A stretch of 64,000 nucleotides of DNA from an uncultured delta proteobacterium (GCA_963811605.1 CAWESA010000010.1:1165066-1229065); one strand, 5' to 3'. Numbered from the stretch's first letter, positions 56,550 to 64,000 are shown. The notes: a model not told the origin generated them from the sequence alone. Numbers and translations are program-made.

Positions 56550-57776
56550 TCAGCCCGGACCGATCTCGATGGGCAGCGTCATCGGCCGCCGGAACGGCCC
56601 CATGACCCGGTACTCGACCAGATCGTCCCGACGACGCGAGCCGGCCGGCAGGAAATCGAGCATGGCCTCGATCATCACACCGATCTCCTGACGGGCCAGG
56701 TGTGCGCCGAGACAGTAGTGCACACCATGGCCGAACGTCATCAGGTCGCGTACGTCGCGCGTCACGTCGAACCGATCCGGATTCTCGAACACGGCGGGAT
56801 CCCGGCCCGCCCCGTCGAACGACAGCATCATCATCTGACCCTTCCGGATGGTCCTCCCGCGCAGCTCGAAGTCGCGCACCGCGTAGCGCGCCGGTCCACC
56901 GATCCCGCCGAAGCCGAATCCCGTGCGCAGGATCTCGGACACCGCGTTGCCGATCCATTCCGGCTCCCGGCGCAGCTTCTCCATCTGGTCGGGATGCCCG
57001 AGCAGGGAGGTTGCCGCAACCATGCCCCCGATCGCGGTCGTCTCGCTGCCGGCGGCGATCAATCCCGTGATCGTCATCACGATCTCGTCGTCGGTGAGCC
57101 GGTCGTCACGATCCTGGGCCCGGATCAGATCCGAGATCAGGTCCTCCTCGAGCGTGACGCGGCGGCCCCGGGCCAGATGTCGCACCCAGGTGGCGATCTC
57201 GAGGAACGCCGCATCGGCCGCCTGCTTCGCCGCCTCGTCCGCAAACGGAAAGACGCCGCGGATCGCGGTCCGGGCGCTCTCACAGAATCGCCGCTCGTCG
57301 TCGCCGGCGGGCGGAATGCCGGCGATCCGGCTGATGACGGCGTTCGGGATGGGACCGGCGAAGCACTCCATGAGCTCGAGCACACCGCTCGAGCGGCGCA
57401 GGGGCGCGGCGAAGCGCTCCACCGTCTCGCGGACCTGCATCTCGTATCGCTTCACCGCGCGTGGCGTGAGGGCGGCGGAGAAGAGCCGGCGCAGCCGGGC
57501 GTGCTCGGATGGAGGGAGCGCGAACAGGCTGTGCTCCTCGATCCAGCGCATGTAGCTGCCCTCGGGCGATGGCTGGTGAAGCTCCCAGCAGCGTCGATCC
57601 GGCGTCACGATCTCGGGAGCGTTGAAGAGTCGCTTCACGTCGTCGTGACGCAGGATCACCCAGAAGCCGAGCGGCGCCACGAAGTGCACCGGATCCTCGG
57701 CGCGCAGCTTCGCCAGGCGCGGATACGGGTCGTCCATGTATGTCGGATCCAGGAATGGAGAGGCGGGGTAGCTCAC
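56550..57776 (-). CDS. cytochrome P450
   Basis: Heme-ligand loop FGHGVHYCLGAHLA, AGSETT I-helix, EILR. GTG start overlaps the vapC stop as GTGA (alternative ATG at 57737). Confidence 0.8.
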   Translation of the reverse strand: MSYPASPFLDPTYMDDPYPRLAKLRAEDPVHFVAPLGFWVILRHDDVKRLFNAPEIVTPDRRCWELHQPSPEGSYMRWIEEHSLFALPPSEHARLRRLFSAALTPRAVKRYEMQVRETVERFAAPLRRSSGVLELMECFAGPIPNAVISRIAGIPPAGDDERRFCESARTAIRGVFPFADEAAKQAADAAFLEIATWVRHLARGRRVTLEEDLISDLIRAQDRDDRLTDDEIVMTITGLIAAGSETTAIGGMVAATSLLGHPDQMEKLRREPEWIGNAVSEILRTGFGFGGIGGPARYAVRDFELRGRTIRKGQMMMLSFDGAGRDPAVFENPDRFDVTRDVRDLMTFGHGVHYCLGAHLARQEIGVMIEAMLDFLPAGSRRRDDLVEYRVMGPFRRPMTLPIEIGPG

Positions 57777-58147
57777 GCCCAGACCACCGGCACGCCGTAG
57801 GCCGCAAAGCCCCGGTCGTGAGTCACGACCGTCAAGCCTTCGGCCATCGCCTGGGCGATCAGCATGCGATCGAAGGGATCGGTATGGTGAAGGGGAAGAG
57901 CGCCAGTCGTCGCCGCGTGGTGGAACGAGATTGGAAGCGGCGTGAACTGGCTCGCCTCGACCGCCTCGTGAAAGGGGCCGGGGATGCGCAGCTTCCCAAG
58001 CGCGACCTTGATCGCGACCTCCCACGCCGAGGCTGCGCTCACGAAGACGACCTCGGCATCGCCGATCGCCTTGCGCGCCTGCATCCCCAGGACGGGATCG
58101 TTCGCTCGCCACCACAGGACGACGTGCGTGTCGAGCAAGAGCTGCAC
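57773..58147 (-). CDS. vapC: PIN-domain toxin VapC
   Basis: GTG start; LLLDTHVVLWW...AEVVFVSAASAWEVAIK...LTVVTHDRGF is PIN/VapC. 124 aa. Confidence 0.75.
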   Translation of the reverse strand: MQLLLDTHVVLWWRANDPVLGMQARKAIGDAEVVFVSAASAWEVAIKVALGKLRIPGPFHEAVEASQFTPLPISFHHAATTGALPLHHTDPFDRMLIAQAMAEGLTVVTHDRGFAAYGVPVVWA

Positions 58148-58154
58148 GTCCCTG

Positions 58155-58406
58155 CTACCTGGTGAAGTGCCGCAGGATCTCGGGCGGCAGCGGAGCGTCG
58201 AAGTCGTCGGCGATCCACACCTGCCGTTCCCAGCCACCTGGTTGGCGAGCCCGGGGAGCTGGCGCCATCGGAACCAGGCGCGCCTTCGGCGTCCCGGCTT
58301 TCGCGATGACGATTTCTTCCCCCGCCGCTGCCCGCTCGACCAGCTCCGACAGCCGAGTCTTGGCCTCGTAGAGGTTGACCAGCCGCGAGGCGCTGCGCTT
58401 CGCCAT
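58155..58406 (-). CDS. Phd/YefM-type antitoxin
   Basis: VNLYEAKTRLSELVERAAAGEEIVIAKAGTPKARLVP is a canonical Phd/YefM N-domain. It ends 7 nt before vapC. Confidence 0.75.
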   Translation of the reverse strand: MAKRSASRLVNLYEAKTRLSELVERAAAGEEIVIAKAGTPKARLVPMAPAPRARQPGGWERQVWIADDFDAPLPPEILRHFTR

Positions 58407-62025: not shown

Positions 62026-62039
62026 GACGCGCTCCCGGC

Positions 62040-63527
62040 TCACGACGTCCCCATGTCGCTCGCGAGCTCCTGCAGGCTGGCCTGCCACGCGCCCTCGGGC
62101 ATCCGATGTTCGTCGAGCGCCGTCACGATGGCGGGGCGATGCTCCCGGGCCCGTTCGAGCAGGCGCGCGACGGTGCGCGCCGCGTCCTCCGGCGCCACGC
62201 GGTCGAGCCAGCCCTCGTTCAGCGCGAGCAGCGCGATCACCTGCGCCGCGACTCCACGAGGCGAGGCCGGATCCTGTCGCAGGAGCGCGCGCAGGATCCG
62301 ACCGCGGCCGATCTCGCGCTCGATGGCCGGATCGATCTCGAGGCCCACCCGCACGAGCGCCTCGAGCTGCTCGAAGCGCGCGTGGAGCACTCTGAGGTTT
62401 CGCGCGAGGAGGCGCATCGGGGAGGGCTGCGCCGCACTGCCGATCCGCGACACGCTCCGCCCGACGTCGACCGCCGGACGCTGATTGCGCGTGAAGCGGG
62501 CGGTGTCGAGATGGATCTGCCCGTCGGTGATCGAGATGACGTTCGTCGGGATGTACGCCGCGAGGTCGTTCTCCGTCGTCTCGACGATGGGGAGCGCCGT
62601 GACCGAGCCGCCGCCGGCCTCGGGTCGCCGGGCCGCCGCCCGCTCGAGCAGCTGCGCGTGCGCATAGAACACGTCGCCCGGATACGCCTCGCGGCCCGGC
62701 GGCCGATCGAGAAGAAGCGCCAGCTCGCGATACGCGTCAGCGTGCTTCGTGAGATCGTCGTACACCACGAGCGCGTGCCCGCCCTGGTCACGAAACCACT
62801 CCGCCACCGACGCGCCGGCGTAGGGCGCGAGGTAGCGCATGCCGGGTGTCGCGGCCGCATCGGCCGCGACGATGACCGTGTTGCCGAGCGAGCCGAGACG
62901 GAGCAGCGCCTCGCGAAGCGCCAGGATCCGCGACATCGGCTGCGCGATCATGACGTAGACGCACGTGACGTCGCCGGCGCGCTGGGCCGTGACGACGTCG
63001 ACGGCGAGCGCGGTCTTCCCGACGTTGCGGTCGCCGATCACGAGCTCGCGCTGCCCGCGACCGATCGGGACGGCTGCATCGACCACCGCGACTCCGGTCC
63101 ACAGCGGCTCGTCGACCGGCTTGCGCTCGATCAGCTCCGGTGCGGGGCGGAAGAGCGGCAGACGCGAGTCGGGCAGCGGCCCCGCATCGTCGAGCGGCCG
63201 GCCGAGCGGGTCGATCACGCGGCCGAGCGTCGCCGGGCCGACGGCGACGTCGGGGAGGCGACCCGTGCCGCGGACGCCTTCACCCGCAGACACCCCGATC
63301 GCTCCCGCGAGCAGCACGATGCCCGTGACGTCCTCCCGGAGATCGTAGGCCATGCCGAGCGCTCCGCCATCGAATACGACCACCTCCTCGGAGCCGACGG
63401 CGTCGAGGCCGGCCGCGAACGCCACGCCGTCCCCCGTGCGCCGTACCACGCCGCGCGGGGCGAGCGCGTCGGCGAGCGTCAGCGTGGCGACCGCCCGCTC
63501 GAGCTGGCCGCACGCCGGCTCAACCAC
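62040..63527 (-). CDS. atpA: ATP synthase F1 alpha subunit
   Basis: Walker A GDRNVGKTA, TVIVAADAAA, YDDLTKHADAYRELALLLDRPPGREAYPGDVFY. Confidence 0.9.
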   Translation of the reverse strand: MVEPACGQLERAVATLTLADALAPRGVVRRTGDGVAFAAGLDAVGSEEVVVFDGGALGMAYDLREDVTGIVLLAGAIGVSAGEGVRGTGRLPDVAVGPATLGRVIDPLGRPLDDAGPLPDSRLPLFRPAPELIERKPVDEPLWTGVAVVDAAVPIGRGQRELVIGDRNVGKTALAVDVVTAQRAGDVTCVYVMIAQPMSRILALREALLRLGSLGNTVIVAADAAATPGMRYLAPYAGASVAEWFRDQGGHALVVYDDLTKHADAYRELALLLDRPPGREAYPGDVFYAHAQLLERAAARRPEAGGGSVTALPIVETTENDLAAYIPTNVISITDGQIHLDTARFTRNQRPAVDVGRSVSRIGSAAQPSPMRLLARNLRVLHARFEQLEALVRVGLEIDPAIEREIGRGRILRALLRQDPASPRGVAAQVIALLALNEGWLDRVAPEDAARTVARLLERAREHRPAIVTALDEHRMPEGAWQASLQELASDMGTS

Positions 63528-64000
63528 CGGACCCCTCGTGCGGCAGGATGGAGTCGGCCAGCTCTTGCTCCGCCCACGCGGCCAGACCCGCCGCCGAGGC
63601 GTCGACGAGGCCCGCCGGCGTGATGATCCGTACGCCGGCGCCGAGCTCGGGGACGACGCGGTCCCTCACCGTAGCCGCCGGACCGATCGTCTCGACGAAG
63701 CGTGCCCGCATCTCGTCGTCGAGCGGGCGGGCCGTCTCGATCTCGACGGAGCCGGCGCACCGTGCCGGCAGAAGCGCGGCGAGCCGCTGGCAGGCCGCCC
63801 GCGCCAGTGCCGCATCCAGATCGGGACCCCCGATCTCCGCGAGAAGCCGCATCACGAGGGTCCGGGCCGCAGCGGCAGCGTCCCGGGCGACGGTCCGGGC
63901 ATGCTCGCGTCGGAGGGCTGCCAGCTCGGTCTCGAGACGTGCCCGCTCCCGGTCGGCCTGCTTGCGAGCACCCTCGACGATGGTCGCGGCCTGGCGCTCG
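63520..64000 (-). CDS. ATP synthase b/delta-like subunit, C-terminal part (N-terminus beyond window end)
   Basis: The open frame continues to the window edge: a coiled-coil b-like segment (EGARKQADRERARLETELAALRREHART...) runs into an OSCP/delta-like C-terminus (...VETIGPAATVRDRVVPELGAGVRII). Confidence 0.55.
   Translation of the reverse strand, partial: ERQAATIVEGARKQADRERARLETELAALRREHARTVARDAAAAARTLVMRLLAEIGGPDLDAALARAACQRLAALLPARCAGSVEIETARPLDDEMRARFVETIGPAATVRDRVVPELGAGVRIITPAGLVDASAAGLAAWAEQELADSILPHEGSGG

Follow-up and report, generated by a model that had tools for sequence, protein, structure and literature searches.

A probable N-type rotary ATPase operon with rotated gene order and without atpR in an uncultured delta proteobacterium

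Which kind of rotary ATPase is encoded by a run of F-type genes that ends with the a subunit and in which no c subunit is seen? The question is raised by a 64,000-nucleotide (nt) stretch of DNA from an uncultured delta proteobacterium (GCA_963811605.1 CAWESA010000010.1:1165066-1229065; the window, in what follows). An earlier note had read there, on the minus strand, the order b/delta-like (partial)-alpha-gamma-beta-epsilon-small two-transmembrane (2-TM) protein-a, and had proposed either an unusual split of the operon or an N-ATPase-like accessory locus into which a toxin-antitoxin (TA) module had been inserted. The data presented here make it highly probable that these genes belong to a single-operon N-type rotary ATPase, whose gene order has been rotated and whose atpR gene has been lost, and which likely works as an ATP-driven H+/Na+ export pump.

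Gene calls were obtained by listing open reading frames (ORFs) and translating them in frame, followed by Pfam and NCBIfam scans. The ATPase genes of the window are the following.

63520..64000 (-): atpF(N), b subunit with a delta-like C-terminus; 3' part of 159 codons, running off the window end
62040..63527 (-): atpA, alpha subunit, 495 amino acids (aa); NF009884 594 bits (cutoff 554), PF00006 E 4e-72, PF00306
61201..62043 (-): atpG, gamma subunit; PF00231 E 5.5e-28, ORF open to 62088
59811..61199 (-): atpD, beta subunit, 462 aa; TIGR01039 532 bits (cutoff 463)
59413..59814 (-): atpC, epsilon subunit, 133 aa; PF02823
59139..59396 (-): atpQ ('gene 1'), 2-TM protein, 85 aa; TIGR02230 48.7 bits (cutoff 46.7)
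58462..59142 (-): atpB, a subunit, 226 aa; PF00119 E 2e-40

All the genes named in the earlier note were recovered at their places, with E-values far beyond chance. The small 2-TM gene, which had been called atpI-like, matches AtpQ instead (PF09527, ATPase_gene1, E 6e-9, 36.3 bits against a cutoff of 26.6); its start is ATG 59396, with an alternative GTG at 59429 that would give 96 aa, as called in the related metagenome contig L082. Similarly, gamma likely starts at a GTG overlapping the alpha stop, and its homologue in L082 is 278 aa long. The beta subunit is 100% identical to the database entry P0001 and carries the intact motifs GGAGVGKT, GERSREG and EELSAED; the alpha P-loop GDRNVGKT is present, as is the essential Arg of the a subunit, within MRLFGNM. 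Searching the 64-kb window by tblastn with all subunits revealed neither a c-subunit gene nor a second ATPase locus, in agreement with the claim that c is missing from the window.

The junctions, read directly from the sequence, are tight all along the locus. Specifically, b and alpha overlap by 8 nt, alpha and gamma meet in a GTGA, gamma and beta are spaced by 1 nt, and ATGA overlaps join beta to epsilon and Q to a, the latter coupling having already been recognised in the earlier note. The a subunit is the last gene of the operon. The genes from b to a look like one translationally coupled unit, and the G+C content (GC) of the operon (0.71-0.77) is the same as that of the surrounding genome.

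Where, then, is the c subunit? A search with beta returned more than 100 clusters at >=68% identity; organism names, attached to only a few of them, read Myxococcota, Myxococcales or Deltaproteobacteria. A scan of a genome collection yielded 80 loci, with a best match of 89%. Gene order was mapped onto 81 related loci by tblastn of the window subunits together with the c and the full-length b of locus L001. The relatives with the rotated order comprise 14 complete or nearly complete loci, 3 fragments and 2 metagenome contigs. Without exception, the loci with a beta identity of 71-89% (L001, L003-L012, L021, L022) have the order c-b-alpha-gamma-beta-epsilon-Q-a, and so does the frameshifted locus L080; what is left in the fragments L002 and L007 fits this order too. 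The closest relatives, the JGI metagenome contigs L082 and L083 (beta 90% identical), encode c (94 aa), b (243), alpha (495), gamma (278), beta (462), epsilon (134), Q (96) and a (223), with a divergently transcribed GST gene upstream of c. Their nucleotide identity to the window is 84% and spans exactly 58462-64000.

Since all close relatives carry c directly upstream of b, the same position is expected for c in the genome under study. The partial b of the window shows 69% identity to the L001 b over residues 85-243 of the latter and, by collinearity with the 243-aa b of the relatives, b is predicted to start near 64252 in the source genome. The same collinearity allows the strong inference that c lies just past the window edge, upstream of b, at approximately 64260-64545. 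The earlier suggestion that c lies upstream beyond the window is therefore upheld, as judged from the relatives; the unusual split that had been attached to it is not, because the relatives have one operon with c first and a last. A split F-type operon was likewise rejected, and the second b that had been considered possible upstream has no counterpart in the relatives.

In the next-closest loci (beta 63-69%) the order is the classical one, namely beta-epsilon-Q-[~300-nt gene]-a-c-b-alpha-gamma. Their sources are Planctomycetota, Acidobacteriota and a small number of mislabelled metagenome-assembled genomes (MAGs), and the loci of Planctomycetota include the isolates Roseiconus nitratireducens (L025) and Aporhodopirellula aestuarii (L053). 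N-ATPases form the 'alternate F1Fo' branch of the F-type ATPases. It is known that classical N-ATPase operons are arranged as atpDCQRBEFAG (Dibrova, Galperin & Mulkidjanian 2010, PMC2881411). Both blocks of that arrangement, beta-epsilon-Q-a and c-b-alpha-gamma, are intact in the rotated loci and the subunit set is the same except for atpR; unlike in the classical operon, the two blocks are swapped, so that c comes first and a last, and atpR is absent.

Some irregularities were recorded during the mapping. In the classical-order locus L017, gamma (16071-16910) lies on the strand opposite to the rest of the operon. On a long-read MAG contig (L031, 10001-14720), an inverted Q-epsilon-beta comes after beta-epsilon-Q, on the other strand, a palindrome that is probably a fold-back assembly artefact. 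Among the rotated-clade records, L002, L007, L008, L010 and L011 carry discordant labels (Candidatus Binatia, Spirochaetales/Spirochaetaceae, Gammaproteobacteria), one isolate name containing 'MYXO'; the taxonomic labels of the rotated-clade MAG records are unreliable.

The assignment to the N-type is supported, in the first place, by the subunits themselves. As in classical N-ATPases, no delta (atpH) gene is present and b overlaps alpha directly. The partial b alone gave no match to any Pfam or NCBIfam model. A profile (A1) was then built from 20 b homologues, which are 243 aa long in the relatives: its positions 7-157 match subunit b in PDB (E 3e-14), and its positions 115-220 match subunit delta of Acinetobacter baumannii (7p2y_d, 5.7e-8) and Escherichia coli (8dbq_W, 1.6e-3); a match to V-type subunit E (5e-4) was also obtained. 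A long b with a delta-like C-terminus corresponds to the b-delta fusion known from N-ATPases (PMC2881411; PMC4154653). In addition, AtpQ follows epsilon and precedes a, again as in the classical operons, and scores above both the TIGR02230 and the PF09527 cutoffs.

As for the c subunit, the relatives share the sites E32, M63 V64 E65 S66 T67 and F70 (13 permuted and more than 40 classical-order loci), with I64 replacing V64 in two permuted loci. The numbering follows an Ilyobacter tartaricus c sequence that we take to be the reference, and it agrees with the published residue numbers. In these relatives the second Glu, in c helix 1 as in classical N-ATPases, occupies the position of I. tartaricus Q32, whereas M-V-E-S-T-x-x-F lies in helix 2, where a Phe stands in place of Tyr70. 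Read from the relatives' sequences, the c subunit of the clade is of the kind with a two-carboxylate site typical of N-ATPases.

In the second place, we built neighbour-joining trees with 100 bootstraps from beta alone and from alpha and beta together. Monophyly of the permuted clade has a bootstrap support of 98/100 in the beta tree and of 100/100 in the alpha+beta tree, and the clade nests within the classical-order clade of Planctomycetota and Acidobacteriota (100/100). In the beta tree both together join the loci L057 and L058 at 100/100. L057, from Thermodesulfobacteriota (beta 57%), passes the alternate F1F0 beta model (778.6 > 752) and the AtpR model (58.5 > 55.5, plus PF12966), and L058 groups with it at 100/100. 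The beta subunit of the window is thereby grouped with bona fide N-ATPases. Excluded from this grouping are the Chloroflexota loci of N-type order and the canonical F-type loci L061, L064, L067, L068 and L074. Since all the outgroups as well as the early-branching members L072, L029, L035 and L036 have the classical order, the rotated order is derived and of single origin.

The kinship with the Planctomycetota and Acidobacteriota enzymes, among whose hosts Rhodopirellula baltica has been listed for N-ATPases (PMC4154653), extends beyond the trees. They are the nearest loci outside the permuted clade, their c motif (E...MVESTxxF) is identical and their family-model scores are similarly sub-threshold; unlike the permuted loci, they retain the classical order, most of them with a divergent atpR. 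With regard to these scores, the NCBIfam 'alternate F1F0 ATPase' (alt_F1F0) models (TIGR03305/03324/03323/03166/03306/03321/03322/03165) provide the best NCBIfam matches of gamma, epsilon and beta, all under cutoff, and the best matches of the a subunit are PRK13421, PRK13420 and altF1_A, each under cutoff too. The c and b of the relatives also remain below (105.5 vs 130.85 and 46.7 vs 224.7), as does the classical-order Planctomycetota locus L025. Beta and alpha pass generic F0F1 equivalog models (TIGR01039, 532 > 463; NF009884, 594 > 554). The present models under-call the whole Planctomycetota/Acidobacteriota N-ATPase subclade. The subunits of L025 and L072, the two of its loci tested with NCBIfam, score under the alt_F1F0 cutoffs.

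What became of atpR? This gene, coding for a 3-TM protein between Q and a, has been called the 'tell-tale sign' of N-ATPases (PMC2881411). The gene lying in the Q-a gap of the Planctomycetota relatives is matched by neither Pfam PF12966 nor TIGR03165. Its family is nevertheless homologous to bona fide AtpR (hhalign probability 92%, E 5e-7). A clade-specific AtpR hidden Markov model (HMM) built from the gap gene of classical-order relatives recovers it in about 40 loci, with E-values from 1e-9 to 1e-33. With the same HMM, neither the six-frame translation of the window nor the permuted relatives, searched together with their surroundings of +/-10 kb, gave a match, and the ATGA overlap of Q and a leaves no room for atpR between them. 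Given that the HMM finds atpR in classical-order but not in permuted loci, we conclude that atpR was most likely lost in the permuted clade.

The gene at the atpR position of L025 maps to 12103-12411, and some 40 further classical-order loci are alike. Classical-order loci without atpR were observed as well: L043, L044, L047, L056 and L075, with Q-a gaps of 0-89 nt, and L072. It follows that atpR was lost more than once in the subclade.

All together, these data support a scenario in which atpD-C-Q-R-B-E-F-A-G would have been cyclically rotated to atpE-F-A-G-D-C-Q-B with loss of atpR, by a single rotation in the ancestor of a mostly Myxococcota-labelled uncultured clade in which it was then fixed. 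Most simply, the rotation would have proceeded by tandem duplication of the classical operon, loss of the outer halves and subsequent loss of atpR, a path of which no remnants were seen. The resulting operon would begin with c, outside the window, and end with a, encoding an enzyme with every core subunit and with catalytic and ion-path residues that are intact as read. In the literature, N-ATPases are described as companions of a conventional ATP synthase that export Na+ or H+ at the expense of ATP (PMC2881411, PMC5376962); by analogy with the characterised ones, the enzyme most likely works as such a pump beside a conventional ATP synthase, its function, its ion and the presence of the second enzyme all being suggested by that analogy.

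Several points weigh against this interpretation. The c gene and the promoter of the window's own operon were not seen, both being expected beyond the window edge. The classical gene order and atpR, which are among the defining features of N-ATPases, are lacking in this locus. The scores of the alt_F1F0 models lie below the curated cutoffs for beta (568 vs 752, TIGR03305), alpha (498 vs 750.5, TIGR03324), gamma (59 vs 282), epsilon (40.5 vs 100) and a (175 vs 302), which sets the locus apart from classical N-ATPases. The c motif of the clade differs from theirs as well, being ESTxxF, with Phe, and not ESTxxY, with Tyr. Neighbour-joining was the only method of tree building, and the trees include just two bona fide N-ATPases as references and a small number of canonical outgroups. 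Finally, the pump function rests on literature for other N-ATPases (PMC2881411, PMC5376962).

On the choice of ion, the strict rule of ProAD (PMC11738941) would predict H+ for the Phe variant. The N-ATPase of Burkholderia pseudomallei, an accessory enzyme proposed to be an ATP-driven ion pump, has a c17 ring with two Glu that is H+-selective despite an earlier Na+ prediction (PMC5376962). The two-carboxylate c site is shared with the relatives of our locus; unlike them, the B. pseudomallei operon has the classical order with atpR, and its motif is E30/E61-T-M-x-x-Y rather than E/E-S-T-x-x-F.

Neither the rotation nor the lack of atpR is without precedent. The N-ATPase of Persephonella marina has the order atpR-BEFAGDCQ (PMC2881411) which, compared by description, is likewise a cyclic rotation with alpha-gamma followed by beta-epsilon-Q; there the break falls between Q and R, whereas here it falls between a and c, atpR is kept, and the phylum is another one. 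N-ATPases without atpR have been described in Nitrosococcus halophilus (PMC4154653), likewise compared by description, and this host is gammaproteobacterial, with one locus that is split and not rotated. In open-access text, the only literature covered, we found no description of the order atpEFAGDCQB or of N-ATPases in Myxococcota or Binatia. In conclusion, as rotated and atpR-less N-ATPase loci are already published, the locus is a minor variant that will not surprise a specialist.

With the canonical F-type operon atpIBEFHAGDC the locus shares homologous a, c, b, alpha, gamma, beta and epsilon subunits, and the relative order b-alpha-gamma-beta-epsilon. Unlike that operon, it has no separate delta, carries a last and not first, has AtpQ after epsilon in place of AtpI, and belongs to a phylogenetically separate lineage. 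The ProAD survey itself included in its N clade some enzymes that had first been labelled F-type by gene order (PMC11738941). Could the locus nonetheless be the main or only F-type ATP synthase of the organism, oddly ordered and working in the direction of synthesis? This would fit with the beta and alpha subunits passing the generic atpD model and NF009884, with the intact catalytic motifs, with an operon GC matching that of the surrounding genome, and with Chloroflexota T78, where an N-type enzyme is reported to be the sole rotary ATPase (ProAD, PMC11738941). We consider it unlikely: the locus falls within the N-ATPase superclade at 100/100, delta is absent and the b-delta fusion present, and N-ATPases are second copies in every other surveyed case (PMC2881411). 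In addition, a close relative (L085) lacks alpha and gamma, a loss that would be intolerable in a sole ATP synthase.

A related proposal is that the c-first, a-last, atpR-less order marks a functional shift and not a neutral reshuffle of an accessory pump, either through a c-ring made without the proposed AtpR chaperone together with altered subunit ratios, or through a role as primary or sole ATP synthase such as the N-type enzyme appears to have in Chloroflexota T78. It appears doubtful to us.

The relative just mentioned deserves a closer description. In L085 (8019-11219; beta 85%), a decayed form of the same rotated operon, residues 1-73 of b continue in frame into beta from its residue 12, which gives a product of 517 aa. 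Both alpha and gamma have been deleted, epsilon is fused to Q, and the P-loop has changed to GGASVGKT. The exact fusion product is recorded on two contigs, and for this reason it is probably not an assembly artefact. A decayed copy of this kind argues, indirectly, that the system is non-essential. It might also be taken to mean that the locus of the window is itself a decaying, non-functional remnant, the more so as it lacks atpR, which has been described as a hallmark of the system. Such a reading is very improbable, because each of the seven genes in the window is a full-length open frame and has a coupled start, the Walker A motif, the catalytic Glu region, the Arg of the a subunit and the c-subunit Glu of the relatives are conserved, and the gene set and lengths of L082 and L083 are identical at 84% DNA identity, which points to continued selection.

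We next turn to the region directly downstream of the a subunit, whose features are listed below.

58407..58461 (-): spacer between the operon and the TA pair, 55 nt; outside the ATPase
58155..58406 (-): phd/yefM-family antitoxin, 83 aa; TIGR01552 38 bits (cutoff 20.8), PF02604
57773..58147 (-): vapC-type PIN-domain toxin, 124 aa, GTG start at 58147; PF01850 E 4e-18
56550..57776 (-): cytochrome P450, 408 aa, GTG start at 57776; PF00067 E 1e-26

The gap between the a stop and phd, given previously as 56 nt, counts 55 nt. The phd stop is followed after 7 nt by the vapC GTG, and the vapC TGA overlaps the P450 GTG in a GTGA, as had been noted. The small Phd/YefM antitoxin gene lies directly upstream of the VapC PIN-domain toxin on the same strand, as in type II TA systems; the P450 matches several NCBIfam P450 models, all sub-threshold.

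Could these genes have broken a classical operon, phd/vapC (with or without the P450) having been inserted behind a and having displaced c, and b with it, from there? The c subunit does follow a in classical N-ATPase operons, and the GC of the TA region (0.66-0.68, against 0.71-0.77 in the operon) is lower, as expected of a mobile module. Even so, there is hardly any chance that this is what happened. Fourteen relatives without the TA module also start with c and end with a, b precedes alpha inside the window, and the tree traces the permuted order back to a single ancestral event. Moreover, the DNA similarity to L082 and L083 ends exactly at the stop codon of a (58462) and resumes nowhere downstream. 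The N-ATPase-like lineage proposed in the earlier note is supported by the trees, by the lack of a delta gene together with the b-delta fusion, by AtpQ and by the two carboxylates of c in the relatives; the inserted TA module has to be given up, since a is last in all relatives.

None of the relatives has phd, vapC or the P450 adjoining a, and their downstream genes vary by locus. As far as the compared sequences tell, phd, vapC and the P450 gene are neighbours peculiar to this lineage and lie outside the operon. A comparison of 3 kb of flanking sequence to each side of the permuted operons revealed no shared adjacent gene, and none of the related loci has a homologue of the window ORFs from 44 to 58.4 kb. 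Neither an additional conserved subunit nor a syntenic site of insertion was therefore retained as an explanation. The spacer contains the tandem TTGACCAA-g-TTGACCAA at 58446-58430 (-), overlapping a weak promoter-like arrangement (TTGACC-17-TAGTTT); the TTGACCAA tandem may be an antitoxin operator or a promoter element. A consensus scan for promoters and terminators over 57600-59400 returned nothing above threshold.

Further genes lie beyond the P450 on the opposite strand. One of them, at 51557-54535 (+), codes for a Cys-rich, apparently secreted protein of 992 aa with 14 Disintegrin matches (PF00200, E 1e-84) and one Dictyostelium CTDC repeat; its repeats, of about 40 aa and of the type C-R-x-A-A-G-x-C-D-V-A-E-x-C-T-G, belong to a domain family unusual in bacteria. 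Next to each other at 55182-56140 (+), downstream of the P450, a BON-domain protein (PF04972) and a YflT-like stress protein (PF11181) are encoded.

These findings leave the knowledge of how rotary ATPases work unchanged; their bearing is on how the enzymes of this family are recognised and on how their operons evolve. A gene-order rule such as that of ProAD, beta-epsilon-X-X-a-c-(b-delta)-alpha-gamma, the alt_F1F0 cutoffs or the Pfam AtpR model would mislabel the clade as ordinary F-type. The number of genomes credited with two F-ATPases would then be inflated, and attempts to reconstruct the metabolism of these uncultured bacteria could be misled. In addition, the clade provides a clean single-origin case of operon rotation in a multi-subunit machine, and a natural experiment on the need for AtpR, because the two-Glu c subunit, the proposed partner of AtpR, is kept without atpR.

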